Shown: positions 9,509-32,900, numbered from the stretch's first letter. The stretch is 46,608 nt of DNA from Rhodospirillales bacterium (GCA_016792605.1 JAEULC010000297.1:1-46608); one strand, 5' to 3'. Numbers and translations are program-made. Notes: a model not told the origin generated them from the letters alone.

Positions 9509-10102
9509 GTAGCGGCCGACATCCACTGCTTACGTGCTGCAGGGCGAGTGAATCCTAGGCAGGTTATCAGCCTTGAACTGACCTTAGGCTGACGGGCAAT
9601 CGGCGTTGCTCGCCAAAAGAGAACCTGATTCCAGACGCGGAATTCGCACCAGGCGATCTGCCCTCCAGACATAGATCGATCGGTGAATTTGGCCAATTTT
9701 GGGTCCTAGAGACAGCCTCTGATCAGGATTGGGCGTACAGGACCGGAGATTCCAGCGTACGCCGGCCTTTCTGGCTACTGAGCCTTTGAAGCCCGGACAG
9801 GGCAGGGGGAGACCGTTTGTATTGACGGAGGGAGAGGAACTGAGATCCAACCTTCTCCATTCTGCGGATCGGGAAACTACCGACTAGCCTCCAGCGCAAC
9901 TTTATTGCGGCGCCCGTCCAACCCTGCAAAACCGCTCAGGTTGACCCGTAAGGCCGATTCCTTCGCGGTGAGCTAGACCCCCGGAGGGCCTCTAGCTTAA
10001 TCGCCACCAGCGGCGCCCTGGCAGCATTGACAAGCTCGGCCGATGGAGTTCCGGCATTTCGATACCTGGAACAGTCTGGAGGTTCGGGGTTATGGTGAGC
10101 GG

Positions 10103-11713
10103 ATGAACCAATTCGGTTTGGCGTTGTTAGTGGCTCTTCTCGGCTTCGTGTTACGTGAGAGCCCGGGTATTGCGCAGGACCAGCCGCCGAGTGCAGCTAT
10201 TGGCGAACCCATCGGCAATCGGTCCTCCCCAACCGGTAGTCAGTCCAGGCAGCCGGAAGACGGGGCCTGCAACAATCCGTATGGCTGCGGTCGAGGCGGC
10301 TCCCAGGCCAACCAGCGACCCAGCGACGTGTACTGCCAGCAGAACCCTGACGGCACCGAGAACCGCGGACCGTATCGCGGTACCGGGCGCAATATCCCGT
10401 GCAAGGTGCAGCCGGACGGCAGCGGGGCCGCCAAAAACACTACCGCCCAGCAGGCGGCGAGCCTCAAGATCGTCTTCAACTACTTCTACATCAACGGCAT
10501 CAACACGCCGCGCGACGGCGTCGGGCGCGGCACCTGCCTCTACGATCGGGGCATGATCAAGGGCAACCTGCTCGATCTCGGCCCGCGCGTCGGGCCCAGC
10601 CTGCAGGTAAAGCCGAAGGACGCGCCAAGTATCAAGGTCGCGGACGAGATCGACAAGTTCGAGATCGAGACCTGCAATCCCTCAGGCACGGAAGGCAAGG
10701 CGCTGCGCGCGGTGCAGACCTTCTGCGAGGACACACGTGACGGCAAGTTCGCCAAGTCGGGACCGTTCACCGAAGATCTGGCCAAGCTAATCTGCATCCA
10801 GGCGGCGGATATCGACAAGTTCCGCGCCCAAGGCCTGGGCGGCATGTCTCCGGGTGACGTCGTCGAGGCGTTCCGCCAATCGCTCGGCCTCGGGTTCACC
10901 GACGTCAAGACCGGCCAACCGATCACCGGCATCGAGTTCACTGCGCGTCAGGACGAAGTCGCCAAGGTCGCGCGCGCGATCACCGGGATCTACGAGCGCG
11001 AACTGGCGACGGCACGCAGACCGGCGCAGCAGGCGAGCGCAGGCGCGCCGGCGTCCGTGCCCGCGCCGGCAGAGAAGAACTTCTTCATCATCCTGGCGCA
11101 TTCGCAGGGCAACTTCTTCGCCGAGGGAGTCGCCTATCGGCTAATGAAGGGCCTCGGCGGCAAGAGCGACGCGGCGGTGTTCCAATCGCGCCTGGGCATC
11201 CTGTCGGTCGCGTCGCCGACCAACTACAAGTCGCTCGATCCCGCATTTCTCGGCCGCGCGGTCAAGCATTTCACTCGCAAGGACGACGGGATTCACGCGC
11301 TCGACGCGCTGGCCTTCCTCGGCAGCCGCGTGCCCTGGCCCGCCGGCTACGACCTGGACGCACTATGGCCATGGAAGGACGAGAAGACGATGCGCGGCAG
11401 CATGGAGCTGGTGCGCGGCCAACTCGACCTCAAGAAGGCCGTCTACAGCCCGTTCTTCGAGACGCTCGGCCTGGCGCCGCCGATCGAGCCCTGCCCAGGC
11501 TGCGGCGCTCTCTACACGCCGCTGATGAACTCGCACCTACTCGACAACTACCTAACCGATCCTGTCGCGGCGAGCCCTAACGTTGCGATCAACCTGAAGG
11601 CAGCACCGCTCTTCGAGAGCGGCAAGCCGTTGTCGGCGACCGCCCCGCCCGTCTTGGCCTTCGTCCGGTCTGATCTTGTGGAACTTAAGAAAGCGCTGAT
11701 GACGGCGCGGTAA
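10103..11713 (+). CDS. Secreted alpha/beta-hydrolase-like protein (lipase/esterase-type nucleophile elbow), function unknown
   Basis: Signal peptide MNQFGLALLVALLGFVLRESPGIAQD. There is a Gly/Cys-containing N-terminal region. The hydrolase-like motifs are FYINGINTP (oxyanion region), ILAHSQGNFF (A-H-S-Q-G elbow, Ser codon 11102-11104) and a late LMNSHLLDNY. About 210 aa are inserted between the first two motifs. The ORF extends upstream to 10043, but the signal peptide begins at the Met at 10103. Confidence 0.6.
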   Translation: MNQFGLALLVALLGFVLRESPGIAQDQPPSAAIGEPIGNRSSPTGSQSRQPEDGACNNPYGCGRGGSQANQRPSDVYCQQNPDGTENRGPYRGTGRNIPCKVQPDGSGAAKNTTAQQAASLKIVFNYFYINGINTPRDGVGRGTCLYDRGMIKGNLLDLGPRVGPSLQVKPKDAPSIKVADEIDKFEIETCNPSGTEGKALRAVQTFCEDTRDGKFAKSGPFTEDLAKLICIQAADIDKFRAQGLGGMSPGDVVEAFRQSLGLGFTDVKTGQPITGIEFTARQDEVAKVARAITGIYERELATARRPAQQASAGAPASVPAPAEKNFFIILAHSQGNFFAEGVAYRLMKGLGGKSDAAVFQSRLGILSVASPTNYKSLDPAFLGRAVKHFTRKDDGIHALDALAFLGSRVPWPAGYDLDALWPWKDEKTMRGSMELVRGQLDLKKAVYSPFFETLGLAPPIEPCPGCGALYTPLMNSHLLDNYLTDPVAASPNVAINLKAAPLFESGKPLSATAPPVLAFVRSDLVELKKALMTAR

Positions 11714-11720
11714 GCGCACG

Positions 11721-12893
11721 TCACGCCTGGCTAAGCAGAGCCTTGCTGCGCTCAAGTTGCGCTCGCTGCTTAAGGAGCGCTGCGTCATTCGCCTGGCTGG
11801 TGACGGTCGCCTGCTGGTCGTACTGCGCTTTCGCTTGCGCGACCTGAGCCTGCTGCTGCTGCGTGGAACCGCCGCTTTGCTGCGCCACCGTGCGCTCGTA
11901 GTCCTGCCGGCGCTGCTGCACGAGCTGGCGCGACTGTGCCTCGGCGCGCTGGTGCTCGGCCAGCTTCGCTTCGCGTTCCTGCACCACGGCCAGCGCCTCC
12001 TGGCGCGAGATCGCCCGCGATCGTGCGCAGGCCTGCAGCGCCTCCAGGTCGCGGCGTTCCTGCTGCTCGATCTGCTGGCGCAGGGTCGCGTTGCGCTGCA
12101 TCGCCTGCACGTCCCGCTGCAGGCTGCCGAGCGCCTGCTGCAGGAAGGCCTCGGCATTGAAGCCATAGGCGTTGAACTGGCGCAGGAAGCCCGAGGCCTG
12201 GCCCTGGAACGCCTGCATCATCGCCGACAGGGCCGGGCCGAACTGCTGCGCGAACGCCTGGCTGGCCTGGTCGTACTGTGAATAGAGCGGCTGGGCGCTG
12301 CCCGCGGCCGGGCATTTGCGCAGCGCCTCGGCTGCCAGTCCCGGCTGACCAGGCGTGGCGAGCGCCTGCTGCGACGGGGGAGCACGCACAACCGCCCCGA
12401 ACTCGGCGAGCAGCGGGCCGAAGACGAAGCCGATGTCGCGCCCGTCGCGGGCGACCCGGTACCAGTCCGTGCCCCGCACCCGGCCGGTCACGGCAATGCC
12501 AGACCCCGCCGCGAGCGTCTCGACCTTCTCCGCCTCCGTGGAAGGGGCGGCACGCACATTCGCGGCGCCGGTAACAAAAGAGTCGCGGTCGAGCGGCTCT
12601 ATGTCGAGAGCGGACGGCGGCGGCTTGGGAGCAGGCGGCGTTGCGGTCGGGAGGGGGGTGGGCGCAGTCGTCGTCGGCGCGGCATTGACGCGCACGCGGG
12701 CGAGCGCGGCGTAGCACCCGTTCGGGAAGGTATCGAGATAGGCCTTGTGGTCCTCGGGCGCGCGGCTGTTCTTGATCGAGTCCCAGAACGCGGCCTCGGC
12801 CGGGTCGACCTTGTCGCAGCCCGCCTGCCCCCAGGCCGGGCCGGCGGCGGCCGTCGCAAGACCGATGGCAACGAGATAGGCGCCGCGCCTCAT
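11721..12893 (-). CDS. Secreted SH3b-domain protein with C-terminal Q/A/R-rich coiled-coil
   Basis: Signal peptide MRRGAYLVAIGLATAAAGPAWGQ. The SH3_3-like segment is ANVRAAPSTEAEKVETLAAGSGIAVTGRVRGTDWYRVARDGRDIGFVFGPLL. The long C-terminal region is Q/A/R-rich and helical. Its ATG overlaps the upstream stop (ATGA at 12890-12893). Confidence 0.75.
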   Translation of the reverse strand: MRRGAYLVAIGLATAAAGPAWGQAGCDKVDPAEAAFWDSIKNSRAPEDHKAYLDTFPNGCYAALARVRVNAAPTTTAPTPLPTATPPAPKPPPSALDIEPLDRDSFVTGAANVRAAPSTEAEKVETLAAGSGIAVTGRVRGTDWYRVARDGRDIGFVFGPLLAEFGAVVRAPPSQQALATPGQPGLAAEALRKCPAAGSAQPLYSQYDQASQAFAQQFGPALSAMMQAFQGQASGFLRQFNAYGFNAEAFLQQALGSLQRDVQAMQRNATLRQQIEQQERRDLEALQACARSRAISRQEALAVVQEREAKLAEHQRAEAQSRQLVQQRRQDYERTVAQQSGGSTQQQQAQVAQAKAQYDQQATVTSQANDAALLKQRAQLERSKALLSQA

Positions 12894-14503
12894 TGCGAGC
12901 TCAGCTCCTGCTTCCACTGCTCGGGGTCGATGCGCCCCTGCGTGCGGCGATGAGCCTCGATGTGCTGCACGAACACGCCGACGAAGCGCTCGACGCGCTT
13001 CACCGCCGGATCGTCGGTCTGCAGCTTCAACAGGTCGAGCTGGCCGCGCAGCGTCTCCGGCGCATAGTCCTCCGCCGCCTGCTTCACGAAGGCGCGATAG
13101 GTGGCGAAATCCTCGTCCTGGCGCCGGCTCCAGTCGTTGATCGCCTGCTTGGTCTCGGCGATGTCCTTGGCCGGAGCGCGGATCTTGGCCTGGTCGACCA
13201 GCAGCTTGCCGTAGGTGCGAATCTCGATCCGGTCGCGGTCGACGTCGCGGCCATAGAGCGCGCCGATGCGGATCAAGGCGTTGGCGGCGCGGTCGCGCTG
13301 CTCATTGCGCACCGCCGTGTTGTTCGACAGCGACCGCGCCAGCTCGTTCAGCCGCTGCTGCGTCGCCGCGTCGAGATTGCCGCGCGCCAGCGCCTCGAGC
13401 TGCTGGATGGGGTCCGCGCCGGGCGTCGGCGCACCCGCGCCCTGCCCGCCAGTGTCGAGCCGCGACAGCGCCTCGTACTCCTCGCGGATCTTGGCGATGC
13501 GCTGCGGTTCGGCCTTGGTCTCGACCGTCGGCGCGAAGGCCAGGCGGAACCCGTTGGTCTCCACGCGGCTCGGACCCTTGCGCGCCAGGTCCATCGGCGG
13601 GTATTCGCGCCGCCAGGCCGCGCCGATCACCGTCTCGCCGATGAGATAGGAGCCGCCCTTGACCACGAAGCCGCCGGCTTGGCCGTGCATGCGTCCGGCC
13701 TTGGTCATGCGGTAGGAATCAAGCACGATCTCCGCTGCATTGCCGATGATGTCGTGCAGCAGCAGCGGGTTCGGCTTCTTGAGCCCGATCGGCCAAAGCT
13801 TGCCATTGGCGGATTTCGCGCCGGCGAACCAGACGGACTCTTCCAGCGGCTGGCCGGGCTCGACGAAGGTCGGGTTTCCGTAGTTCTTGCCCGCCGCCGC
13901 GCCGCCGCGCGCCGCGTATTCCCACTCGACCTCGGTCGGCAGGCGGAAGAAGCCGTTCAGCGTCACCAGGCGGTAGGTCTCGCCTGCCTTGTCGAGCTTC
14001 GTGTCGGCCTCGGCGTAGAGCCACTGCGAGTAACGCTCGCCGAACGAGACCGCGTCGAACCAGCTCAGGCCCACCGCCGGGATCTCGCGGTCGCCGGCGG
14101 GCGCCGCGCAGTCTTTCGGTGGCGCGGTCAGCGTCTCCAGGGCGGCGCGTTGGCCCTGCGTGAACTCGTACTTGGCGAGGAGATAGAACGACGCGGCCTG
14201 CTTCGCCGGGTCGGCCTCGCGGAAGCCGCCGACCAGCGGGATGTCGCGCGGCGCCTCGGCATAGCGTGTGCCCGGGTCGCGATCGTCGCCGAGCGTTACC
14301 GGCGCGTCCGCCATCCAGTTGGTCGCCTCGCCGCTCTTCACCGGAACGACGATCTTGCGGAACACCATGCGCGCGGCGCAGGGCATCGGGAACACGACGT
14401 CGTCCGCGTCCGGCACCGGATTGAAGCGGTCCGCCGTCTGCGCCTGGGCGACCGTTCCGGCCAACAGCGCGAGCAGCGCGGCGGCGGCGACCGTCCTAGA
14501 CAT
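12890..14503 (-). CDS. Periplasmic FGE-sulfatase-fold (SUMF1/EgtB/PvdO family) protein with helical C-terminal extension
   Basis: Signal peptide MSRTVAAAALLALLAGTVAQAQ. Family motifs are SWFDAVSFGERYSQWL, FRLPTEVEWEYAARGG, PNPLLLHDIIGNAAE, VVKGGSY and NGFRLAF. The catalytic Cys pair of true FGE is absent (KGGSYLIGETVIGAAWRRE). There is an 8-nt start/stop overlap with the permease gene. Confidence 0.85.
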   Translation of the reverse strand: MSRTVAAAALLALLAGTVAQAQTADRFNPVPDADDVVFPMPCAARMVFRKIVVPVKSGEATNWMADAPVTLGDDRDPGTRYAEAPRDIPLVGGFREADPAKQAASFYLLAKYEFTQGQRAALETLTAPPKDCAAPAGDREIPAVGLSWFDAVSFGERYSQWLYAEADTKLDKAGETYRLVTLNGFFRLPTEVEWEYAARGGAAAGKNYGNPTFVEPGQPLEESVWFAGAKSANGKLWPIGLKKPNPLLLHDIIGNAAEIVLDSYRMTKAGRMHGQAGGFVVKGGSYLIGETVIGAAWRREYPPMDLARKGPSRVETNGFRLAFAPTVETKAEPQRIAKIREEYEALSRLDTGGQGAGAPTPGADPIQQLEALARGNLDAATQQRLNELARSLSNNTAVRNEQRDRAANALIRIGALYGRDVDRDRIEIRTYGKLLVDQAKIRAPAKDIAETKQAINDWSRRQDEDFATYRAFVKQAAEDYAPETLRGQLDLLKLQTDDPAVKRVERFVGVFVQHIEAHRRTQGRIDPEQWKQELSSQ

Positions 14504-15695
14504 CGCGCAACGCCTCGGAGGGCTGAATGCGCGCCGCGTGCAGGCCGCCGACGCCGGAGGCGACGACCGCAAGCACCAGCGTCGCGCCGGCCGCATAGAC
14601 GAGATGCTGCGGCGCGAGCTGGCAGATCCGCTCGCCCTCGGCCAAGCTGGTGGTGAAGAACCGGTTCACGCTGGCCGCCACCGCCAGATATGCCGCTGTC
14701 GCCAGCGCGCTGCCGACCAGGGCTACCATCGCGGCCTGACAGGCCGGGAACAGCATGCAGCGCGGCGTGTCGAAGCCGACCAGCCGCAACACCGCGATCT
14801 CGCGCCGCTTGCGGTCGACATTGCCCCACAGGCTCGAGGCCAGCGACAGGGCGTAGCCGCCGACGCCGATCGCGGCGACGATCCAGAACACCGCCGTGAG
14901 GTTGCGATCGAGCGCCCGCACCGTCTCGATTTCCGCCGCCCGGGTGCGCACCTCGACGCCCTGGCCCTGCATCCGGTCGCGCAATCCGGACACGTCGTCG
15001 ATCGATCGCGCGTAGAGCCGGAACCCGGCGAAGGCGCGATCGGCGCTCAGCGGCGCGCTGCCCGCCCAGCCCAGCGCCTCGACCGCGCGGCCGTCGCGAT
15101 AGTCCTCGGCAGCGACGAGAAGCTCCAGCGACACGAAGGCCGCGTCGCGGTCGAAGCTCGCGAGCGGCAGCACGCCCGCCACCGTCAGGGGCTGCGTCGC
15201 GCGCTCCGACTGGCCGCGCACCACGCGGGTCAGGCTGCCTTCCAGGGTTGCGCCGGGTGCAATGCCAAGTTTTTCCGCGGCGGACCGCGACAGGACGATC
15301 TGGCCGGTGCCTGTGGGCGCGGGCTGCGCGGCCAACAGCGGGTCGCCGGGCGCGCTCGGCACCAGTTCGACGGTCACCAGCGGCCGGCCCGACTCGGCCG
15401 TATTGCGCAGGAACATCGATGCGGCGATGGCCCGGGTCTGCGGCAGCACGAAGCCCACCTCCGGCCGCGCGGCCATCTGGCGGAACCAGGCCGGATCGAA
15501 GCGCCCGCTCGCCACCGGCAGGATCTGGCGGTTGGCCGGATCCTCGATCAGGCGCTCGCGCATCGTCGTCACCACGCCGTGCTTCAACCCGAACAGCACC
15601 AGCATCGGCGCCAGGATGGCCGACAGGGCCAGGACCAGGCACAGCGACAGGCGCCATTCATGCAGGAAGTCCCGGAGCGCGAGGCCGAACACCAT
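14496..15695 (-). CDS. ABC transporter permease, FtsX/MacB-LolC type (4 TM, large periplasmic loop)
   Basis: 399 aa. TM1 is LSLCLVLALSAILAPMLVLFGL, followed by a periplasmic loop of about 220 aa and three C-terminal TMs. The protein ends ...AARIQPSEALRDV, which is typical of FtsX-family permeases. Confidence 0.85.
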   Translation of the reverse strand: MVFGLALRDFLHEWRLSLCLVLALSAILAPMLVLFGLKHGVVTTMRERLIEDPANRQILPVASGRFDPAWFRQMAARPEVGFVLPQTRAIAASMFLRNTAESGRPLVTVELVPSAPGDPLLAAQPAPTGTGQIVLSRSAAEKLGIAPGATLEGSLTRVVRGQSERATQPLTVAGVLPLASFDRDAAFVSLELLVAAEDYRDGRAVEALGWAGSAPLSADRAFAGFRLYARSIDDVSGLRDRMQGQGVEVRTRAAEIETVRALDRNLTAVFWIVAAIGVGGYALSLASSLWGNVDRKRREIAVLRLVGFDTPRCMLFPACQAAMVALVGSALATAAYLAVAASVNRFFTTSLAEGERICQLAPQHLVYAAGATLVLAVVASGVGGLHAARIQPSEALRDV

Positions 15696-15704
15696 GGACC
15701 CAGC

Positions 15705-16430
15705 CTAGCCCCAAAACGACGAGCGCACACCACCCTCGATCGGCTCCAGCCGGTGCTCCAGGCGCCGCAACTTGAGCCGATCGACGACCGACGCGTCATG
15801 CGTCGCCAGGATCGCGGTGGCGCCGAACTGCTCCACCGTTTCCAGGAACAGGTCGAGAATGCGCGCTGCATTCATCGGATCGACCGAGGCCGTCGGCTCG
15901 TCGGCGACGGCGATGGTCGGCCGGTGCGCCAAGGCCCGGGCGATGGCGACGCGCTGGCGTTCGCCGACCGACAGGGCCGCCGGCCGCTTCGCCAAATGCC
16001 GCGTCAGGCCCAGGCGCTCGGCCAGCGTCGCCACCGTGCCATCGTCGCCAAGGCCCAGCACGCGCCGCGACAAGGCGATGTTGTCGCGCACGCTCAGATA
16101 GGGCAGCAGGCCGCCGGTCTGCAGCACATAGCCGATATGGCGCGCACGAAGCTGCCCCAACGCATCCGTCTTGCCGGCGGACCAGGTCTCCGCCGCGGGC
16201 ACGGCTTCTCCATCGGTCGGCGCGAAGTCGAACCGCACTGCCGCGCTCGGCCGCAGGACAAGCGCCAGCAGGTCCAGGAGCGTGCTCTTTCCACTGCCGC
16301 TTTCCCCGACCAGGGCGATCTTCTCGCCGCGCGCGATCACCAGCCGCGGAATCTCGAGAGCGAAGCGCGACCCCGACGCCGTCCAGTCCTTGCGGACACC
16401 TTCCAGATGATAGACGGGGGGACCCGGCAC
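15705..16430 (-). CDS. ABC transporter ATP-binding protein (LolD/MacB-type)
   Basis: Walker A GESGSGKS, signature LSVGERQR, Walker B IAVADEPTASVD and H-loop ATHD. The GTG start is preceded by GGAG with a 6-nt spacing. Confidence 0.9.
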   Translation of the reverse strand: MPGPPVYHLEGVRKDWTASGSRFALEIPRLVIARGEKIALVGESGSGKSTLLDLLALVLRPSAAVRFDFAPTDGEAVPAAETWSAGKTDALGQLRARHIGYVLQTGGLLPYLSVRDNIALSRRVLGLGDDGTVATLAERLGLTRHLAKRPAALSVGERQRVAIARALAHRPTIAVADEPTASVDPMNAARILDLFLETVEQFGATAILATHDASVVDRLKLRRLEHRLEPIEGGVRSSFWG

Positions 16431-16441
16431 CTGCCGCTCCC

Positions 16442-18448
16442 TTATGGGAGGGCGTCCAGCGGCACGGGATAAACCGACTCGCCGCCCAGCGAGCCGCCGT
16501 CAAGCGCGACCCAGCTATCGGTGTTGTTGTGCAGTTCCTCGTAGAAGCGGATCTTCGACTTCAGGCGGTCGATGAAGGCCTGCTGCTCACCGATGCTCCA
16601 GGACTGCCAGAGATCCTGGCTGATGTTCAGCACGTCGCTTTTATATGGCAGCCCGTCCAGGTATTCGCCGATCAGCCCGGTCTCCGCCAGGTTCTTGGCC
16701 CCGCCCGCGCTCTTGGTCACGCCGGCGACACCGCGCGGCGCCCGCGCCATGGCGGCGGCGGCGCTCTGCAGGTCGGTAAAGAAGCCTTCCGGCGATATCT
16801 GGGCCGCTTCGCCCGCCTTGATGATCGTCTTCAGCACCTGCTGCAGGTCGCTGATCTGGTCGCGCGACATCAAAAGGCGCACGTCCAGCGTCGCCAGCGT
16901 CGGCCGGTCGAAGTCGCGGTCGCTGACCCAGGCCTCGAACACCGGCGGCGCCTGCGTCCCCTTGCGCTTGCCCAGATAGGCGAGCTGCATGGCGTTGCCC
17001 ACCAGCGCCGCCTTGCGGTCGATGCCGGACGCGTCGGACTCCTTCAGCGGCTCGGGCGTGGGCGGCTTTTTGGCCGGCTCGGACAAGGCCTGGCGAACCG
17101 TCTTTACCTGCTGCGTCAAGGACGTCGCCAAGCGCTCGATCGTCTCGCCGAAGCGGTCGACCGAACCGGCCTCGACCGGGATGTACAGGCTGTCCTTGCC
17201 CTGGAAGCGCGTCAGCATCTCGTACTGGGTCGCCGCGGCGGCGTGGTCGCGGGCGCCTTCGCGGGTCTTCAGATGCACGGCGAAGAGCGCAATTCCAGCG
17301 GCCTGTGCGAACTCGCGAACCTCGGAGGTGAACATGCCGCTGCTCGCCAGCGGATGATTGCCTTCGAGCGCGCTGGCATCGGAGATCAGCACCACGATCT
17401 TCGCGGCATACTGGTCCCAGTCCATCTCGGTGAGCGCCGACATCACGCCGGCATAGGCGTCCTCGGGAAGCTGCGGACCTGAGGATACTTTCGCCGGCAC
17501 GACCTGCGCGGTGAGGTCCAGGAATTTCTGGCCTTTGACGCCGTCCTTCAGCGAGGCGAAGGTTCGCGTCGTATATTCAAGATCCGGCACGGACTTTGTG
17601 CTGCTGCGATAGGCGACGAGGCCGAAGCTGACGTCGCCCTCCAGCTTCTCGGCCTCGACCCGCTTGTAGACCCGCGCGATGACGTCGCGCATCCGGTCGA
17701 TATAGGGGCCCATCGTGATCGTCGTATCGACCACGAACACGATGCCGGTCTTGAATCCGACCAGCATGTCCTGCGGCTTCGCCTGGTCGGCGGCGGGCGG
17801 TGGCGGATCGTTCAGCGACACCGAGGCGATCTTCAGCGCCGTGGCCGGCTGGCCCTTCTTGGTAAGCGCCTGCTGGTGCTCCAGGATCGGCAGCAGGTAG
17901 AACTGCTGCTGGATGTCGACATGCTCCGGCGGCTCGATCGACAGGACGGGCGAGTTCGCCGGCGGCTTGCCGGAAATGATCGCTTCGTAGAGCGCGCCGT
18001 ATTTCTGCGCCGGATCCGGCGCCTCGATCAGTTCCATCAAGGGCGGCCGGTCGCGCAGCAGCAGCACGCGCTTGCGGTCGGCCGGATTGGTGAAGGCTAC
18101 GGTCAGGGCCTGTTTCCATTCGATCGCCTGCTTGGCATCGATCCAGCCCGTGGGGCCGGATTCGACCGAGGCGCCCACCTCGATCATGGCGGTGTTCTGC
18201 GCCCGCTTGCGGCCGTACACGTAGAAGACGGTGAACGGGGTGGTGTCGTCCTTCGCCACCGCGGCGTCGGGCTGGGCGTCCTTCAGCACCTTGGTCCCGG
18301 GCCGGGTCAGGACGCGCTGGTAGAGCGTTTTCTTGCCGTCCAACAGCAAAGGCTTGCGATCCTGGGCAAAGGAGGGCCCGGCGGGGATTCCGAGGGCGCC
18401 GACCAGCATCAGCGCGGCGATCAGCCGCCGCTTCGACGAGACCTTCAT
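16442..18448 (-). CDS. Periplasmic von Willebrand factor A (vWA) domain protein
   Basis: Signal peptide MKVSSKRRLIAALMLVGALGIPAGPSFAQD. The vWA-like core is GIVFVVDTTITMGPYIDRMRDVIARVYKRV...VSFGLVAYRS...KIVVLISDA, with a DxTxT variant at the MIDAS position (17714-17728). N- and C-terminal flanking domains have no recognisable family. Confidence 0.8.
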   Translation of the reverse strand: MKVSSKRRLIAALMLVGALGIPAGPSFAQDRKPLLLDGKKTLYQRVLTRPGTKVLKDAQPDAAVAKDDTTPFTVFYVYGRKRAQNTAMIEVGASVESGPTGWIDAKQAIEWKQALTVAFTNPADRKRVLLLRDRPPLMELIEAPDPAQKYGALYEAIISGKPPANSPVLSIEPPEHVDIQQQFYLLPILEHQQALTKKGQPATALKIASVSLNDPPPPAADQAKPQDMLVGFKTGIVFVVDTTITMGPYIDRMRDVIARVYKRVEAEKLEGDVSFGLVAYRSSTKSVPDLEYTTRTFASLKDGVKGQKFLDLTAQVVPAKVSSGPQLPEDAYAGVMSALTEMDWDQYAAKIVVLISDASALEGNHPLASSGMFTSEVREFAQAAGIALFAVHLKTREGARDHAAAATQYEMLTRFQGKDSLYIPVEAGSVDRFGETIERLATSLTQQVKTVRQALSEPAKKPPTPEPLKESDASGIDRKAALVGNAMQLAYLGKRKGTQAPPVFEAWVSDRDFDRPTLATLDVRLLMSRDQISDLQQVLKTIIKAGEAAQISPEGFFTDLQSAAAAMARAPRGVAGVTKSAGGAKNLAETGLIGEYLDGLPYKSDVLNISQDLWQSWSIGEQQAFIDRLKSKIRFYEELHNNTDSWVALDGGSLGGESVYPVPLDALP

Positions 18449-18544
18449 GCGCGCCTTACCCCCGCCCCTGCTGGCATTTGCGTGGCCGGACTATATCATG
18501 CGCCCCAGCGCGGGAAACGCGCCGCAGGGGGAAACATCGTCACG
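18449..18544. promoter_or_regulatory. Divergent promoter/control region between the two operons
   Basis: The 96-bp gap between two divergently oriented start codons must carry both promoters. A CTATAT (-10-like) lies at 18491-18496. No convincing -35 element or operator was identified by eye. Confidence 0.3.
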
Positions 18545-27195: not shown

Positions 27196-28854
27196 ATGGC
27201 CATTCCGCAGCTGATCCGCACCACCGACACCGCCACGCTGGTTCCCGTCGACGTCGGCGGCCAGCCCGTCGTCCGCGCCGCGACCGAGCTGCGCGACTTG
27301 CTGGAAACGCGGCTCGGCCCGGGCTCGTCGGGCTTCTTCGCCGAGCCTGCCGTCGCCGGCCGGCCGGGCGCGGCGGTGGACCGGGTGTCCTGGTTCGGCG
27401 AGCAGCCCGGCGAAGGCCTCGCGCTGTCGGCGCTGACCGGCGCCACCAAGACCCAGGCCGAGGACCAGCTCCGCCAGACCCTGCGTCGCCTCGCCCCGCT
27501 GATCGCCGATCCGCGCCACGGGCCGCTGCTGCGCGCGGCGCTGGTCGTGCCGGGCGACGACGACATCCGCATGGTCGCCGGCGACCCCGTGCTGACAAAC
27601 TGGGGCTTCGCGCCCCAGGGCGTCGACCCCGCCGATCCCGCCCAGATCGACCGCCACTGGCAGGCGACGCTGGGCCGCTTCGCCGCCTTTCCCTCGCCCT
27701 GGCGCGCCGGTGCCGCCGTGCTGCCGCCCGACCCCGCGCCCAACCTCAGCCCACCGCCCGCGCCCGCTGCCCCTGCCATGCCCAGCGCGCCGCCTCCCCT
27801 CGCGGCACCCGCGCCCGCGCTGCTGCCCTGGTACCAGCGCCCGACCGCCTGGGCTGGCTGCGCCGTGGCGATCCTGGTCGCGGGCGTCGCCATCGGCCTG
27901 CTGCTGCGGTTCCTGCTGCCGCCGGCCCAGGTCGCCACGCCCGAGCGACTCCGCGCCCTGATCGCGGCCCAGGTCGAGGTCAATCGCGGCCTCGAGCAGC
28001 AGGTCCAGCGCCTGCGCGGCGCGCTCGCCGGCAATGTCTGCACCGCCGACAACCCGCTCGGCGCCGGGCTGCAACAGCGTCCGGTCTTCCCCGTGGACGG
28101 CGAGCCGAAGAAGACCGAGGCGCCGCCCAAGGACGGCCCCAAGGGCCCGGATGCAAAACCCGATCTGGCGCAGGGCGACCGGCTGATCGACATGATCGAT
28201 GCCGGGACGGTGCTGGTGATCGCCGAGAACAGCAAGGGCACCGGCTTCTTCGTCGCGCCCGGCATGGTGGCCACCAACCGCCACGTCGTCGAGACCGCGA
28301 AGAACGGCAAGGCCTACATCATCAGCAAGGCGCTCGGCCGCGTGGTGCAGGCCGAGATCGTCGCCTCGACGCCGCAGGACCCCGCGCTCCTGCGCGACTA
28401 TGCGCTGCTCAAGGTCGATGGCGCAGCGTTGGAGAAGGTGAAGGTGCTGCGCATCACCGCGACGCTCGATCGGCTCGACCAGGTCGTGGCCGCCGGCTAT
28501 CCCGGCTTCGTCATCAACCACGACGCGCACTTCCAGGCGCTGATGAAGGGCGACCTCACCTCGGTCCCGGACGCCGTGGTCAGCAATGGGGTCGTCAGCA
28601 CGATCCAGTCCCAGCCCCAGGGCGCCGGCGCGATCATCCATACCGCGATCCTGTCGCACGGCAATTCCGGGGGGCCGCTGCTCGACCTGTGCGGCCGCGT
28701 CGTCGGCATCAACACGCTGATTGCGCTGGATGAGAAATCGCACCGCCAGAGCAACATCTCGCTGACCGCGCCCGACCTGGTGCAGTTCCTGAAGACCAAC
28801 AACGTGCCGGTGACGCTGTCCGACGGGCGCTGCCAGGCGCCGAAGCTGGGCTGA
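27196..28854 (+). CDS. Membrane-tethered trypsin-like (S1/chymotrypsin-fold) serine protease with N-terminal cytoplasmic domain
   Basis: 552 aa. The order is an N-terminal domain of about 150 aa, a Pro-rich segment, TM AWAGCAVAILVAGVAIGLLLRFLL, a coiled-coil and then the protease domain. The triad contexts are ATNRHVV (His 28282-28284), DYALLKV (Asp 28396-28398) and GNSGGPL (Ser 28666-28668). Confidence 0.8.
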   Translation: MAIPQLIRTTDTATLVPVDVGGQPVVRAATELRDLLETRLGPGSSGFFAEPAVAGRPGAAVDRVSWFGEQPGEGLALSALTGATKTQAEDQLRQTLRRLAPLIADPRHGPLLRAALVVPGDDDIRMVAGDPVLTNWGFAPQGVDPADPAQIDRHWQATLGRFAAFPSPWRAGAAVLPPDPAPNLSPPPAPAAPAMPSAPPPLAAPAPALLPWYQRPTAWAGCAVAILVAGVAIGLLLRFLLPPAQVATPERLRALIAAQVEVNRGLEQQVQRLRGALAGNVCTADNPLGAGLQQRPVFPVDGEPKKTEAPPKDGPKGPDAKPDLAQGDRLIDMIDAGTVLVIAENSKGTGFFVAPGMVATNRHVVETAKNGKAYIISKALGRVVQAEIVASTPQDPALLRDYALLKVDGAALEKVKVLRITATLDRLDQVVAAGYPGFVINHDAHFQALMKGDLTSVPDAVVSNGVVSTIQSQPQGAGAIIHTAILSHGNSGGPLLDLCGRVVGINTLIALDEKSHRQSNISLTAPDLVQFLKTNNVPVTLSDGRCQAPKLG

Positions 28855-28858
28855 GGCG

Positions 28859-29803
28859 ATGGCGCGCCCGGTCCTCATCGCCCATACGCCGCGCGCGAGC
28901 CTGCGCCCCCTGGGGGCGCAGGGCCAGACCGTCGCCCAGGCCCAGCAGCAGGTCGTGGCGGTGATCGCCGCCAGCCTGACGCCGCGCCATGCCCTGCTCT
29001 TCGCCGAGCCCGTTACCGATCCGGCGCGCGACCAGATCGCCTGGTACACCACCGCGGACGGCAGGGCGCAGCGCCTGGCCGAAGCGGCGCCCGAGGCGCA
29101 GCAGAAGGCACGCGAGGCGATCGCGATGCTGGCCGACGATATCCGCAAGCTCGCCGCCGGCTACATCGCCGCCCCGAACCCGCAGCAGCGCCAGCTCGGC
29201 CAGCTCATCGAGCTGGCGCAGAGCTTCCCGGGTGAGGAATGCGTGTTCCTGGTCGGCGAGCAGCCAGTCATCGTCGCCTGGGGCTATGCCTCGACCGCCG
29301 CCAGCGCCGCCGAGCCGACCACGCTGACCCGCTACGGCGTCCGCCCCGCCGGCCGGACGCGCGCCGCCCGTGCCGAGGCCGATGCCGCCGCCGCCCAGGC
29401 AGCCGCGGCCGCTTCTGCCTCTCGGGCTTCCGCTGCTTCCCGCCACGCGGCGGCGCCCGCCTGGTTGTTCTGGATCCTATTCCTGCTCGCCGGCCTGGCG
29501 GTGGGCAGCGGCGTCGCCTGGGCGATCCAGAGCGGCCCGCTGCCGATCGTCTGGACCGCCGGCGTGCCGACGGTGGTCTCCGACCCGCTCGCCGAGGGCC
29601 GCGCCGCCGAGGCCAAGCTGCGCCAGGCGATCGCGGACCTGTCGCTGCAGATCGCGCAGAAGCAACTGCAATGCACCGTGCCGCCGGCCGACGGACCGGC
29701 CCGGGCGCCGGGCGGTAGCGACTCGCCGCCTCAGACCCGACCGCAGCCAACGGATACGCCGCCGGCTCCGGCAGCGCCACCGGCCGGAGCCACGAAACCC
29801 TAG
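28859..29803 (+). CDS. Bitopic membrane protein sharing the N-terminal domain of the preceding protease; coiled-coil and Pro-rich tail
   Basis: 314 aa, starting 4 nt after the upstream stop. The N-domain aligns with the 27196 protein: LFAEP...IAWY...VFLVGEQPVIVAWGYA against FFAEP...VSWF...IRMVAGDPVLTNWGFA. The TM is WLFWILFLLAGLAVGSGVAWAI. Confidence 0.7.
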   Translation: MARPVLIAHTPRASLRPLGAQGQTVAQAQQQVVAVIAASLTPRHALLFAEPVTDPARDQIAWYTTADGRAQRLAEAAPEAQQKAREAIAMLADDIRKLAAGYIAAPNPQQRQLGQLIELAQSFPGEECVFLVGEQPVIVAWGYASTAASAAEPTTLTRYGVRPAGRTRAARAEADAAAAQAAAAASASRASAASRHAAAPAWLFWILFLLAGLAVGSGVAWAIQSGPLPIVWTAGVPTVVSDPLAEGRAAEAKLRQAIADLSLQIAQKQLQCTVPPADGPARAPGGSDSPPQTRPQPTDTPPAPAAPPAGATKP

Positions 29804-29824
29804 CTTGTCCCGCGCGTCACAGCG

Positions 29825-30445
29825 CTACTCGATTTTCAGTTCCACCTGAGCGCCGTCTGGCAAATCGGCAATCTGGCGCGCGATGTCGGCGCGAGCGCGC
29901 ATCAGGGGCAACAGGTCCGCGGCGTAGAGGTTGTCGACGGTGAACTCGCCGCCCATTACGAAGGGGATTTTCGGCGCCAGGCGCTGATCGTGCTTCAGTG
30001 CGCCGTGCGTCGCCTGCCATTGATGCGCCAGCGAATGCCCGACCATCACGTCATAGTCGCGCAGCAGCAACGTGACAAACGCCTCGAGCGTGTCCGCGGT
30101 CCGCGTGAGATCGCCGGTCTCGGGATCCAGCGTCCATACCGCGCCGCTTCGCAGGCCGAACTGGCCGCCGAAGATATCCTGACCGAAGAAAAGCACGTCC
30201 GCGGGAATCGCCGGATAGGCGCCGCGCCAGCCATCTGCACTGTTGACGTTCTCTAGCGATAGAGGCTTGGCCGGGTCGCTGGGGTAGATATGAAGCGCCG
30301 CCTCGAACGCCAGAAATCCGTTCCGTTGCGCCAGCAAGCCCGCCAACTCACGCTCAACCGCGTTTGCACCGACAAAAGCCGGCGCGGCCTTGGAGAGGGC
30401 CGGCCCACCGATTTCGAGTAACTTGGAAACAGACGTGGAGGACAT
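29825..30445 (-). CDS. SMI1/KNR4 (SUKH superfamily) immunity-like protein
   Basis: 206 aa, cytoplasmic (no signal peptide). SUKH-like features are LAGLLAQRNGFLAFEAALHIY and VLFFGQDIFGGQFGL..GAVWTLDPETGDL...TLEAFVTLLL. The C-terminal segment is PFVMGGEFTVDNLYAADL. It starts 3 nt after the stop of the nuclease gene. Confidence 0.6.
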   Translation of the reverse strand: MSSTSVSKLLEIGGPALSKAAPAFVGANAVERELAGLLAQRNGFLAFEAALHIYPSDPAKPLSLENVNSADGWRGAYPAIPADVLFFGQDIFGGQFGLRSGAVWTLDPETGDLTRTADTLEAFVTLLLRDYDVMVGHSLAHQWQATHGALKHDQRLAPKIPFVMGGEFTVDNLYAADLLPLMRARADIARQIADLPDGAQVELKIE

Positions 30446-30448
30446 TCG

Positions 30449-31120
30449 CTACTGTGTCCTTAGTTCAACTTTGGTGTTGTCGGGATACTTGCGGCATTGG
30501 GCGCCAATACAGGCTCCGGCGCCCCGATTGTCGGAGGGTGGGACCGGCCGCACGCTGGATCCCTTGCCGCCCTCCTTGAACATGGCCGGCGGATACTCGT
30601 CGCGGTCCTTGCCGGGTTGCCGCGGCTGGCCCTGCATCGACGCGGCCCGCCGCTGCGCCGCGCCTTGCCGGTCGATCGTCACGACAGCAGGCTTGCCGGC
30701 TTTCTGCGCGTCCTCGATATGCTTTGCGCTTTCGGGATACTTGTCGCGCGGAACGACGACAACAGGCCGTTGTGCCGCCTTGGCTTTGGCGTCCGCGTCG
30801 GCTTTGGCTTTCGCATCGGCCCTTGCCTTGGTATCGGCGTCGGCCTTGGCCTTTGCGGTGGCCGCGGCCTTCGCTTTCGCGTCGGCGGCAGCCTTGTCAT
30901 CGGCGGCCTTCTTTTTCTGCCGCTCGGCTTCTTCCCGCTTTTGTTGTTCCTGGCGCTTCAGATCCTGCTCGCGCCGCAGCCTGTCCTCGTCGTTCTTGCT
31001 GGCCGCGACCAGCACGCGCTTGGTCGCGCTCTCCGCAGCGGCGATATTCGCCGTCGGAAAGAGCATCTGCCCGGCGAACAAGGCGAGGAACGCAAGTACG
31101 CGAAAAACAAAACCGCACAT
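30449..31120 (-). CDS. Secreted NucA/NucB-family deoxyribonuclease with Ala/Lys/Asp low-complexity linker
   Basis: Signal peptide MCGFVFRVLAFLALFAGQMLFPTANIAAA. The C-terminal ~105 aa read KYPESAKHIEDAQKAGKPAVVTIDRQGAAQRR...GKDRDEYPPAMFKEGGKGSSVRPVPPSDNRGAGACIG...YPDNTKV. This aligns motif-for-motif with Bacillus NucB (RYPETGSHIRDAI...TIDRDGADKRR...DRDEWPMA..EEGG...V.PSDNRGAGS...YPDGTRV). Confidence 0.9.
   Translation of the reverse strand: MCGFVFRVLAFLALFAGQMLFPTANIAAAESATKRVLVAASKNDEDRLRREQDLKRQEQQKREEAERQKKKAADDKAAADAKAKAAATAKAKADADTKARADAKAKADADAKAKAAQRPVVVVPRDKYPESAKHIEDAQKAGKPAVVTIDRQGAAQRRAASMQGQPRQPGKDRDEYPPAMFKEGGKGSSVRPVPPSDNRGAGACIGAQCRKYPDNTKVELRTQ
30771..30912 (-). repeat. Imperfect short tandem repeats encoding (A/D/T)AKAKA low-complexity linker inside the nuclease gene
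   Basis: On the plus strand there are reiterated GCCTTGGC/GCTTTGGC units. They translate on the minus strand to AAADAKAKAAATAKAKADADTKARADAKAKADADAKAKAA. Confidence 0.7.
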
Positions 31121-31168
31121 GACTGCCGCTCCGTCCGCTGAACGCCAAACTCCGCTGGCGTCTACTCC

Positions 31169-32005
31169 TCAGGGCCCCTTGGCGCAAAACATCGAGAAGG
31201 CCTGGATGACATTGGCGCCCTTGTCGACCTTCATCATGTCCCAGGGCATCGTCTGGCTGTAGCTGTTCGGGTTGATCATGTCCTTGAAGGACTGCATCAG
31301 CTTGCTCTGGTCGACGCCGACATTGACCATCGGCGCCACCGCGACGGACAGGCCCGTGGCGGCCCAGCCCTTGCAGTATTCGGTTACTTGCGTGCCCCTG
31401 GTCACCGCCTTGGGATCGGGCTCGGCTTCGACCGGATCGCCGGCGGCGTCGATGCGCTCGGCCCAGACCGGCGCGGCCGGGGCGAGCGCGAAGACGGCGC
31501 GGCCATCCTTGCGCTTCTGCATCGACGCAACCTTGCCGCAGGCAACGCGCAGGCCGCCGACGAAGGCGTTGCGGTTCGCGGCCACACCTTCGAACCCGGC
31601 GACGACCAGGCCCGGCGGGCATTCCATGAACACGGCCGTGCCGCCATCCGGATTGCCGGCGTACTCGTCGCCATCATAGGCGTCGTCCGCCACCCAGCCG
31701 CAGGCGCCCTTGTCGCAGGTCACCTCGGCGCAGACCGGCCGAATGTAGTCGAGTACCGGGCCCTGCTTGATCTGCACGCCGACGATGGCGTCGCGCTTGT
31801 CGCAGCGCAGCGTGCCGATCGCCACGCTCTGCAGCGAGGGGCCCTTGCCTCCGACCTGGGACAACTCCACCTCGAACGCGGCCGGGTTGCCGCCACTGTT
31901 CTTCATCTCCAGGCCCTGGGCCCGGAGCGTGGAGGACGCGGTGCCCAGCATGGCGGCGGCGATCAGAAACTGCGTGACCTGGCGTGCCATCCTGCCCTCG
32001 CGCAT
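31169..32005 (-). CDS. Secreted hypothetical protein (Cys-containing, beta-rich)
   Basis: Only the C-terminal ~278 aa of the 609-aa ORF are protein-like. The signal peptide is M(REGRM)ARQVTQFLIAAAMLGTASSTLRAQG, with an alternative start at 31990. Eight Cys are present and no family was recognised. Confidence 0.65.
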   Translation of the reverse strand: MREGRMARQVTQFLIAAAMLGTASSTLRAQGLEMKNSGGNPAAFEVELSQVGGKGPSLQSVAIGTLRCDKRDAIVGVQIKQGPVLDYIRPVCAEVTCDKGACGWVADDAYDGDEYAGNPDGGTAVFMECPPGLVVAGFEGVAANRNAFVGGLRVACGKVASMQKRKDGRAVFALAPAAPVWAERIDAAGDPVEAEPDPKAVTRGTQVTEYCKGWAATGLSVAVAPMVNVGVDQSKLMQSFKDMINPNSYSQTMPWDMMKVDKGANVIQAFSMFCAKGP

Positions 32006-32015
32006 CGTCCTGTCC

Positions 32016-32735: not shown

Positions 32736-32900
32736 GTCCCCTCCCATTTGATAGGGTCGGCCCGTGGCGCCGAGGCGCTGAAATGCCTGCGGCGCCCCCG
32801 TTCCCTGTGACCAGCATCACTTGAACGGCGGCGGCCTTCAAGTACTATGCGCCGATCCGGATAGCGGGACAGGAGCGCCATGCTCCACGGGGGTGTGCCG

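Follow-up and report, generated by a model that had tools for sequence, protein, structure and literature searches.

The window considered here is a 46,608-nt stretch of DNA from a Rhodospirillales bacterium (GCA_016792605.1, JAEULC010000297.1:1-46608), to which all coordinates refer. Twelve genes located between positions 11721 and 29803 make up two compact operons of opposite polarity, which diverge from a short intergenic region (Table 1). Between the five genes of the minus-strand operon, gaps measure 11 and 9 nt, and overlaps 8 and 4 nt; the seven genes of the plus-strand operon are spaced by 61, 13, 10, 16, 34 and 4 nt. Gene map, gaps, overlaps and 96-bp divergence, all given in a preliminary description of this DNA, were reproduced exactly from the map of open reading frames (ORFs). 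Very probably, the twelve genes are a single copy, rearranged, of the extended srf cluster, made of srfABC plus a conserved accessory cassette (Vic2/HopL1).

Table 1. Features of the locus at 11721-29803 of the 46,608-nt window.
Feature	Position	Strand	Size	Remarks
SH3b/coiled-coil gene	11721-12893	minus	390 aa	from ATG at 12893; ORF reaches GTG at 12917
FGE-fold gene	12890-14503	minus	537 aa	
FtsX-family permease gene	14496-15695	minus	399 aa	
ABC ATPase gene	15705-16430	minus	241 aa	
vWA gene	16442-18448	minus	668 aa	
Divergent intergenic region	18449-18544	none	96 bp	
g1	18545-19282	plus	245 aa	
g2	19344-20321	plus	325 aa	
SrfB gene	20335-23373	plus	1012 aa	
SrfC gene	23384-26029	plus	881 aa	directly 3' of srfB, 10-nt gap
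g5	26046-27161	plus	371 aa	
g6	27196-28854	plus	552 aa	
g7	28859-29803	plus	314 aa	

SrfB and SrfC are full-length members of their families. SrfB matches Pfam PF07520 with E=8.6e-287 (residues 2-1009 aligned to positions 3-991 of the 992-position profile), and SrfC matches Pfam PF10139 (Virul_Fac) end to end (E=2.4e-235). AlphaFold2 models of both proteins were obtained from 36-sequence alignments, and compared with the PDB by Foldseek. The SrfB model (pLDDT 84.8, pTM 0.87) best matched DnaK (5nro, E=1.5e-15), and also BiP, Ssb and Hsp110, with 189 matches at E<=1e-3. The phosphate-1, phosphate-2 and adenosine motifs typical of the Hsp70/ASKHA fold lie in invariant columns of the alignment, DxxxDFGN (251-260), DxGGGTxD (581-588) and GRPS (781-784), the invariant residues being D253/D257/G259, D581/G583-T586/D588 and G781-S784. 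The SrfC model (pLDDT 83, pTM 0.76), which features a long helical stalk region, matched the bacterial dynamin-like protein BDLP (2j69, E=1.1e-6), dynamin, mitofusin/Fzo1, the Campylobacter dynamin-like protein (DLP) pair and LeoA, and almost all of its top 29 matches belong to the dynamin superfamily. The G1 motif GPSQxGKS (68-75) and the G3 motif DFPG (339-342) are invariant in the 36 sequences. Both folds had been proposed in the preliminary description, and are supported by structural matches and invariant motifs alike; the NTPase motifs named there are present and lie in invariant columns, except for the G4 motif of SrfC, which departs from the family consensus. Searching the PDB by sequence with either protein gave no meaningful match. 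SrfB has no hydrophobic N-terminal leader, and the single marginal segment revealed by a hydropathy scan (238-256) is taken to be a strand within the ATPase core rather than a transmembrane (TM) segment; neither a TM segment nor a leader was detected in SrfC by the same scan. Both proteins are therefore regarded as cytoplasmic. On the strength of its model SrfC would be a cytoplasmic dynamin-like GTPase, for which membrane remodelling and GTP-dependent self-assembly are predicted. Natural fusions were noticed as well (proteins P0335 and P0359): one, of 1292 aa, unites the Pfam domains Virul_Fac and SrfB, and in the other, of 1112 aa, SrfC is joined to a TerD domain.

The other five proteins of the plus-strand operon had been viewed as unrelated bitopic adaptors. 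Their single-pass topology was confirmed by the hydropathy scan, which assigned one TM segment each to g1, g2, g5, g6 and g7. They are not unrelated: four are modules of SrfA, and the fifth is a conserved protein encoded just after SrfC. The reference model for SrfA, NCBIfam NF040486 (SrfA_fam), has 438 positions and a cut-off of 150 bits. The match of g1 is limited to profile positions 278-428 (E=1.8e-30, 107 bits), and was found as well by a hidden Markov model (HMM) of the C-terminal half (SrfA-C) built in this work; g1 has a TM segment at 18-36, eight Cys residues and a Cys-rich periplasmic SrfA-C domain, and no N-terminal half (SrfA-N). Profile positions 219-437 are matched by g2 (E=4.6e-33, 115 bits), in which a TM anchor and SrfA-C are followed by an acidic/Pro-rich tail. 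That g1 and g2 are paralogues, as already recognized, is shown by 45% identity (E=3e-68); close relatives (loci L086 and L089) have one SrfA-C gene only, encoding 339-354 aa. In both proteins merely ~17-23 cytoplasmic residues precede the TM segment, and therefore neither can dock alone onto the cytoplasmic NTPases. At the other end of the operon, residues 6-288 of g6 match profile positions 3-282 (E=6.4e-16, 59 bits). Beyond its TM segment (223-241) g6 continues into a periplasmic trypsin-like serine protease (Trypsin_2, E=3e-20), and the triad H363/D401/S491 is conserved in 11-12 of the 12 proteins sharing the SrfA-N+trypsin architecture. Positions 9-190 of the profile are matched by g7 (E=1.4e-24, 87 bits), which has a TM segment at 197-215, a short coiled/Pro-rich periplasmic tail, and 28% identity to the N-domain of g6 (E=2e-9). 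No protein of the window spans NF040486, all four scoring under 150 bits, and the canonical SrfA, in which SrfA-N, TM segment and SrfA-C reside in one protein, is absent. SrfA is thus split, with SrfA-C on g1 and g2 upstream of srfB, and SrfA-N on g6 and g7 downstream of srfC. The fifth protein, g5, consists of a cytoplasmic N-domain, a TM segment (179-197), a Pro-rich linker and a TPR/Sel1-like periplasmic domain. It is homologous to the 365-aa product of the gene following SrfC in locus L002 (8907-10004, E=8e-9), and tblastn matches to g5 are found directly after SrfC in ~30 loci. The Sel1 repeats formerly attributed to it are faint (E=0.12); its homologue in H. jordaniae bears a TPR protein annotation.

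HMMs for the two SrfA halves were run over all retrieved loci. Canonical proteins carrying SrfA-N and SrfA-C are 32; SrfA-N is joined to a trypsin domain in 16 proteins, to a vWA domain in 2, and to other C-terminal regions in 28, and SrfA-C occurs without SrfA-N in 20. These architectures reveal that SrfA-N-anchored proteins form a family whose periplasmic heads are interchangeable. A protein of a Klebsiella cluster annotated as 'tellurite resistance domain protein' (L083, 3554-4666) also bears SrfA-N according to the same HMM.

The minus-strand operon encodes the cassette proteins. Pfam VWA is matched by the vWA protein only at E=0.0055. Yet, 17 of 26 homologues match it (best E=1.2e-8), and a MIDAS-like motif, D241-x-T243-x-T/S245 ... 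D357, is conserved, D241, T243 and D357 being invariant or nearly so; the assignment made earlier, weak in the window protein itself, is therefore sound at the family level. The protein has a signal-like N-terminal hydrophobic leader, and conserved N- and C-terminal domains which match no known family. Homologues found amount to 837, two of them labelled 'PpkA' by the Joint Genome Institute (JGI), and no meaningful match was obtained by comparing either the protein or a vWA-family profile with PDB sequences. The ATP-binding cassette (ABC) ATPase matches Pfam ABC_tran (E=5e-25) and, below the equivalog cut-offs, NCBIfam FtsE (4e-39) and LolD (3e-35); by sequence it is assignable to the FtsE/LolD/TagT type. 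The permease matches Pfam FtsX (E=1.6e-10), weakly MacB_PCD (3e-4), and NCBIfam lolCE (5.6e-8), and its best solved match in a PDB sequence search is LolC (7arh, E=3.9e-4). The hydropathy scan predicts four TM segments, with a ~230-aa periplasmic domain between TM1 (20-38) and TM2 (268-286). The permease had been called MacB-type; FtsX family and four TM segments hold, but the protein is nearer to LolC/E, and probably to TagS, than to MacB, its best match being LolC. As previously noted, neither a membrane-fusion protein nor TolC was found among the locus genes by Pfam and NCBIfam scans.

The remaining cassette proteins are an FGE-fold and an SH3b protein. The former, periplasmic and putatively TagR-like, matches Pfam FGE-sulfatase (E=2.6e-23), FGE (formylglycine-generating enzyme) and PorK in a PDB sequence search, and weakly NCBIfam GldK/PorK; it features an N-terminal hydrophobic leader in the hydropathy scan, and a long helical C-terminal extension. 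A catalytic Cys is missing, GGSYLIGET aligning to GGSYLCHDS of FGE, and the whole cysteine-pair motif GGSYLCxxxYC reads GGSYLIGETVI. The only Cys residues of the protein are at 42 and 132. Since the catalytic cysteines are absent, the protein is not a formylglycine-generating enzyme. Judging from its residues it would be a binding or scaffold module rather than a modifying enzyme, contrary to a recent preprint (bioRxiv 10.64898/2026.09.18.752743). The SH3b protein combines Pfam SH3_3 (E=6.5e-11) with a Q/A-rich coiled coil, and has no NCBIfam match. Its N-terminus, MRRGAYLVAIGLATAAAGPAWGQAG, is signal-like, but no segment reached the threshold of the hydropathy scan; of the three signal peptides claimed earlier, those of the vWA and FGE-fold proteins are matched by hydrophobic leaders, and the third is not. 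The SH3b gene is kept beside the FGE gene in the close relatives L086 and L089, and occupies the slot where other clusters have genes for a TagQ-like Gly-zipper lipoprotein and a 165-aa coiled-coil protein. No significant similarity was found between the SH3b protein and the TagQ-like and 164-aa proteins of locus L001.

Comparison with other genomes reveals that the two operons form one unit. In Terasakiella pusilla and in a 4-Mb genome, vWA homologues with ~45% identity reside inside a single co-directional cluster, in the order (SrfA-N-vWA)-SrfA-SrfB-SrfC-TPR-like-vWA-ABC-FtsX-FGE-Gly-zipper lipoprotein-165-aa coiled coil, adjoined by a trypsin-like protease gene. GTDB species genomes were scanned with an SrfB alignment, and at least 583 loci were found; the best 80, a sample biased towards relatives of the SrfB of the window, were kept and searched by tblastn with the window proteins. 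SrfC, vWA, ABC, FtsX and FGE follow in order in 34 of the 44 loci with >=9 kb of downstream sequence, and in 24 of the 31 in which both flanks are complete. This co-directional arrangement bears out the suggestion that the two operons belong together. In the window the cassette is homologous to that of other clusters and retains the order vWA-ABC-FtsX-FGE, on the strand opposite to srfB and srfC. The closest relatives (L086 and L089, 77-89% identity) share the divergent layout, and the inverted cassette is therefore a lineage feature, not an assembly artefact. Looked up from the vWA side, most contexts contain SrfB/C, the two that do not being an Azospirillum chromid and one metagenome-assembled genome.

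The distribution of the cluster is wide. The SrfB family includes 1391 representatives at 50% clustering, and hosts of the srf cluster include free-living organisms, such as wastewater Competibacter, Roseomonas, marine Terasakiella and sulfate reducers. The whole cluster was also seen in many gut and rumen Desulfovibrionaceae. Complete clusters reside on K. pneumoniae, Cereibacter and Haematospirillum plasmids as well. Plasmid data refer to pKPN-065 (L083) and 125 other PLSDB plasmids, those on E. coli to matches H101-H108. The cluster of pKPN-065, an IncFIB/IncHI1B K. pneumoniae plasmid, is complete and flanked by insertion sequences (IS); Klebsiella plasmids with a full-length vWA homologue are 114, and those with an FGE homologue 115. 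A Klebsiella-type srfB, 99.8% identical, is chromosomal in 28 complete E. coli genomes, any match being present in 31 of 5426. Carriage by Klebsiella plasmids and the near identity of the E. coli srfB genes point to recent horizontal spread. All strong PLSDB tblastn matches of the FGE and vWA proteins fell into other Srf clusters, or into the Azospirillum cassette lacking SrfB/C; weak FGE matches on Burkholderia and Azospirillum ramasamyi plasmids lie in unrelated contexts.

The srfABC genes of Salmonella are regulated by SsrB and FlhDC. They are not accompanied by the cassette (bioRxiv 10.64898/2026.09.18.752743), and srf mutants swarm poorly (PMC4219756). The locus had been said to match no characterised system; on the contrary, the extended srfABC cluster has been described three times (PMC3486870, PMC6950479, bioRxiv 10.64898/2026.09.18.752743). 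A cluster of 12 ORFs named Vic2, known in P. syringae as the HopL1 cluster, was reported in 2012 in Pectobacterium wasabiae, with conserved counterparts in Enterobacter 638, X. bovienii, A. vinelandii, P. multocida, P. syringae, P. putida and H. parainfluenzae (PMC3486870). Sun et al., 2019 noted 'T6SS post-translational control' genes beside srfABC of X. stockiae (PMC6950479; T6SS, type VI secretion system). A preprint of September 2026 divided SrfA into an N-domain of kinase-like type, a TM segment and a C-domain resembling lipocalins, reported Lol-like ABC, vWA and SUMF1 genes at the flanks of srfABC, and modelled the SrfA/B/C interaction by AlphaFold 3, without mention of Hsp70, dynamin, TagQ, T6SS or trypsin (bioRxiv 10.64898/2026.09.18.752743). 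A search for SrfC-dynamin and SrfB-Hsp70 links in the literature retrieved nothing relevant. Three points were not found stated in the literature searched: that SrfB and SrfC have folds of the Hsp70 and dynamin kind, that SrfA-N anchors form a modular family, and that there is a parallel to TagQRST.

This parallel was drawn from the cassette. One domain of PpkA is a periplasmic vWA domain. TagQRST serves as an envelope sensor acting upstream of PpkA (PMC6657622), in which TagR corresponds to COG1262 (FGE), TagS to COG4591, TagT to COG1136, and TagQ, a lipoprotein, sits in the outer membrane (PMC13584744, a 2026 review). The gene 3' of FGE in loci L001 and L002 has VI_TagQ (NF041250) as best NCBIfam match (E=8e-17 and 2.5e-17, respectively). 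Upstream of the Srf cluster of Bilophila wadsworthia ATCC 49260, a human gut pathobiont, a TagQ-like lipoprotein gene (L007, 5305-6168) matches the same model with E=2.8e-38. By analogy, the cassette would work like the TagQRST-PpkA sensor, to which it is probably related; this likeness does not imply membership.

Cytoplasmic NTPases, bitopic anchors and periplasmic modules are all present, in keeping with the envelope-spanning machine envisaged in the preliminary description. That the locus is an extended srf copy which senses and remodels the envelope is the explanation we favour overall, and we give it about an even chance. The specific route, from a periplasmic sensor through SrfA-N anchors to an Hsp70-like/dynamin-like pair remodelling the inner membrane, is put forward by analogy and quite tentatively. 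Identities, folds, topology and synteny are established by the analysis, and each signalling and remodelling step of the route is inferred. The periplasmic module would detect an envelope perturbation or a ligand, as TagQRST does, and the ABC pair could provide mechanical work. Three bitopic proteins, g5, g6 and g7, have sizeable cytoplasmic domains, SrfA-N being present on g6 and g7. The signal might pass the inner membrane via the SrfA-N anchors, SrfA binding SrfB and SrfC in homologues. SrfC would then assemble locally and remodel the inner membrane, by repair, fusion or vesicle scission, and the Hsp70-like SrfB may load or recycle the SrfC assembly. The anchored g6 protease may release or process the periplasmic parts of SrfA-C or vWA proteins. 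The SrfB/SrfC pairing recalls the dynamin/Hsc70 pair which, in eukaryotes, acts in scission and uncoating. A broader analogy is more speculative still: srfABC might be not a toxin but a general envelope-integrity machine, in which a damage sensor of the TagQRST/PpkA kind recruits both NTPases via interchangeable SrfA-N anchors. According to this doubtful extension, periplasmic heads might be lipocalin-like, protease or vWA domains, and the NTPases might repair the membrane or pinch off vesicles at sites of damage. The window might then represent, with the same reserve, a variant whose SrfA anchor and head modules reside, uncoupled, on separate proteins.

Several observations weigh against envelope sensing and remodelling. 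The experimental data on Srf proteins concern cytotoxicity, virulence and swarming, not envelope repair (PMC6950479, PMC4219756, PMC3486870). The G4 motif of SrfC is degenerate here, TMFD (432-435) replacing the family consensus TKFD. For SrfA-N, to which a putative kinase-like fold has been ascribed, a profile search of PDB sequences found nothing. The three matches to the TagQ model score 61-132 bits, all under the curated cut-off of 300 bits, and the NCBIfam scan detected no TagQ-like lipoprotein in the window. Kinase, phosphatase, FHA and T6SS genes are missing both among the window genes scanned and in related loci annotated or gene-called. The link to TagQRST rests on domain composition, one NCBIfam model matched below cut-off, and third-party annotation. 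Finally, the cassette is absent nearby in 10 of the 44 SrfB loci, four of which also lack SrfC. Around SrfB of four loci (L034, L047, L055 and L059), searches extended to profile HMMs found neither a SrfC nor a vWA gene within 10 kb; three more loci (L042, L052 and L069) have SrfC starting ~1.3, 2.2 or 4.4 kb beyond the end of SrfB, and no cassette. All seven are from Competibacteraceae and other Gammaproteobacteria. Conversely, vWA-ABC-FtsX(-FGE-Gly-zipper-coiled-coil) arrays with no SrfB/C within ~9-12 kb occur on the Azospirillum brasilense chromid (L085, 9000-17000), followed there by an S41 peptidase and large unknown ORFs, and at L095 (10001-14073). The coupling of the cassette to srfB/C is therefore frequent, not obligatory, and the cassette may be a portable module pairing with other partners.

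Among the rival explanations, the tripartite SrfABC toxin favoured by the literature survives best, though we consider it unlikely. According to this hypothesis the toxic cargo would consist of SrfA, SrfB and SrfC, and its processing and export would fall to the Lol-like ABC, vWA and FGE proteins, possibly in outer- or outer-inner-membrane vesicles. The dynamin-like LeoA is among the fold matches of SrfC, and LeoA has been linked to vesicle-associated toxin release in enterotoxigenic Escherichia coli (ETEC). The X. stockiae SrfABC proteins are cytotoxic and insecticidal when expressed in E. coli, and the three form a complex, as shown by co-immunoprecipitation (PMC6950479); deletion of Vic2 lowers potato maceration (PMC3486870), and export by outer-membrane vesicles has been argued for (bioRxiv 10.64898/2026.09.18.752743). 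Cytotoxicity, however, was seen with over-expressed proteins, and the deletion spanned 22 ORFs, so the Vic2 phenotype is not cluster-specific. Moreover, the folds of SrfB and SrfC are those of cytoplasmic NTPases of the housekeeping type, their catalytic motifs are invariant, and neither has a hydrophobic N-terminal leader or a credible TM segment; the SrfA modules are anchored in the inner membrane; the FGE-fold protein, for want of catalytic cysteines, could not carry out an FGE-type modification; and the cluster is common in free-living organisms.

It is improbable that the locus is an anti-phage or inter-bacterial conflict system, in which vWA and FGE proteins sense the invader, and the NTPases and the protease give a protective or abortive response. 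Domains of the vWA, FGE-fold, trypsin-like protease and dynamin-like types recur in conflict systems. The cluster is also mobile, as documented by the IS-flanked copies on Klebsiella plasmids and by the E. coli chromosomal srfB genes, and in the window it lies within a GC-rich island. Beside one cluster (L094, 17620-18918), ~0.6 kb downstream, a gene encodes a 432-aa TIR_2 + FGE-sulfatase protein, an architecture typical of conflict systems, and the g6 protease domain weakly matches protease-containing PADLOC models. By contrast, of the ten proteins scanned with PADLOC v2 (all but g2 and g5), SrfB, SrfC, vWA, FGE, FtsX, g1 and g7 gave no match, and the matches of the ABC ATPase are generic. 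The conserved core includes no nuclease, NADase or pore-forming effector, its conserved partners are envelope proteins, and no defence, integrase or phage genes were found near the locus in the window, the preliminary description having already reported the locus itself to be free of integrase and phage genes. Still far less probable is a sensor of the T6SS threonine-phosphorylation type, serving a T6SS encoded elsewhere, with SrfB and SrfC as unrelated passengers. The TagQ-model matches and annotations such as PpkA and 'T6SS post-translational control' speak for it; yet neither a kinase nor PppA, Fha or any T6SS core gene turned up among the scanned genes of the window or in related loci that were annotated or gene-called, and the genes with which the cassette is tightly coupled in operons are srfB/C rather than those of a T6SS. 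Chance adjacency of two unrelated operons, suggested by the opposite strands, by the occasional occurrence of the vWA-ABC-FtsX core alone and by SrfB/C loci devoid of the cassette, is effectively refuted by synteny, since the co-directional cluster found in most of the loci surveyed extends across Alpha-, Gamma- and Deltaproteobacteria-type lineages and plasmids.

Promoters of both operons presumably lie in the 96-bp gap. The sole sigma-70-like match within 11400-30200 maps there (18471-18499, + strand), but 0.8 matches are expected by chance, and the match is not significant; overall, the promoter/terminator scan of the locus performed no better than chance. The G+C content is 0.66-0.75 across the locus and its downstream neighbours (11000-34000), against ~0.61 in the flanks, where ordinary transport and metabolic genes reside. 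The G+C-rich block may be a horizontally acquired island; no integrase or tRNA gene was found at its edges, the sole tRNA of the window being a tRNA-Met at 200-276. Flanking genes (10043-11713 and 29825-33872) were left outside the system because they are absent from other Srf loci, except for two neighbours which the closest relative has as well. The gene at 10043-11713 (+), converging on the end of the minus-strand operon, encodes a Cys-rich protein of 556 aa that begins with a hydrophobic segment; its 'ILAHSQGN' motif resembles the GxSxG of alpha/beta-hydrolases, and no Pfam or NCBIfam match was found. On the opposite side, a secreted NucA/NucB-like DNase (30449-31120, -; Pfam E=3e-6) with a Lys/Ala-rich region is followed directly downstream by a 206-aa protein with no family match (29825-30445, -). 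The two could be a nuclease and its inhibitor, and both genes are absent from the closest relative, L086. In the 609-aa ORF at 31169-32998 (-), conservation is limited to the last ~250 residues, Cys-rich and including a signal peptide (73% identity in L086); the N-terminal part, rich in Arg and Pro, seems to be an over-extension of the ORF in high-GC DNA. Overlapping it, a gene at 32880-33872 (+) encodes a Gln-rich coiled-coil secreted protein, 50% conserved in L086. Elsewhere, on a plasmid of Burkholderia sp. JP2-270 (L090, 8881-12712), a gene for a small stand-alone FGE-fold protein lies just upstream of DUF2169, polymorphic-toxin type 15 and GAD-like genes; the region resembles a cassette of the T6SS-effector type, and has no relation to the Srf cluster.

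For about 25 years srfABC has been labelled 'virulence factor', 'type III effector HopL1' or 'toxin', with no mechanism attached. A SrfB of Hsp70-like fold, a SrfC of dynamin-like fold and a cassette mirroring a known envelope-damage sensor lead to testable hypotheses on srfABC. In the locus described here SrfA has been 'dissected' by nature, anchor and head residing on different proteins, and experiments on these hypotheses could become simpler. Were the mechanism wrong, the locus would still be a correctly annotated member of a known, uncharacterised family.

The resemblance to known systems varies from one component to another. As in type VII ABC systems of the LolCDE/MacB kind, an FtsX permease of four TM segments, the first two of which enclose a periplasmic domain, is paired with a separate LolD/FtsE-like ATPase. 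MacAB-TolC, however, includes a membrane-fusion protein and TolC, both missing from the locus, LolCDE has LolC plus LolE where the locus has one permease gene, and every NCBIfam score of the ABC pair is far under the equivalog cut-offs. SrfB matches the fold of full-length DnaK, BiP, Ssb and Hsp110 and carries the classic phosphate-1, phosphate-2 and adenosine motifs, but is ~400 residues longer than Hsp70/DnaK, including an N-terminal beta-rich domain of ~240 aa, has no sequence-level Hsp70 match, and is not accompanied by a J-domain or GrpE partner in the srf cluster. SrfC shares its fold with bacterial dynamin-like proteins (Nostoc BDLP, Campylobacter DLP1/2, ETEC LeoA and B. subtilis DynA; Foldseek E=1e-6 to 6e-2), from which it differs in lacking sequence-level similarity (no Pfam Dynamin_N, no PDB sequence match) and a predicted membrane paddle or TM segment; its partners are an Hsp70-like ATPase and bitopic anchors, not a second DLP.

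The cassette has the same broad domain types as TagQRST-PpkA of the P. aeruginosa H1-T6SS, namely an ABC ATPase, an FtsX/LolE-type permease, and periplasmic FGE-fold and vWA domains, and in both cases a signal would travel from the periplasm to a cytoplasmic assembly. In contrast to TagQRST-PpkA, which includes a Ser/Thr kinase, a phosphatase, FHA and T6SS genes, none of which was seen in the srf loci scanned, annotated or gene-called, the output partners are SrfB and SrfC; and while the vWA domain of PpkA sits on the kinase, that of srf clusters is a separate secreted protein, or is fused in some of them to SrfA-N. The closest counterpart is the extended srfABC cluster itself (Vic2/HopL1; Terasakiella, Haematospirillum, Klebsiella plasmids, Cereibacter), which shares with the window full-length SrfB and SrfC, SrfA modules, the TPR-like gene after SrfC, vWA, ABC, FtsX and FGE genes, and the trypsin-like protease. 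Elsewhere the cluster is collinear, includes a canonical SrfA, and carries the TagQ-like Gly-zipper lipoprotein along with the 165-aa coiled coil. The copy in the window is distinguished by an inverted cassette and a divergent layout, by a split SrfA, with SrfA-C and SrfA-N on separate proteins and one SrfA-N fused to a protease, and by one SH3b/coiled-coil protein in place of the TagQ-like lipoprotein and the coiled-coil protein.

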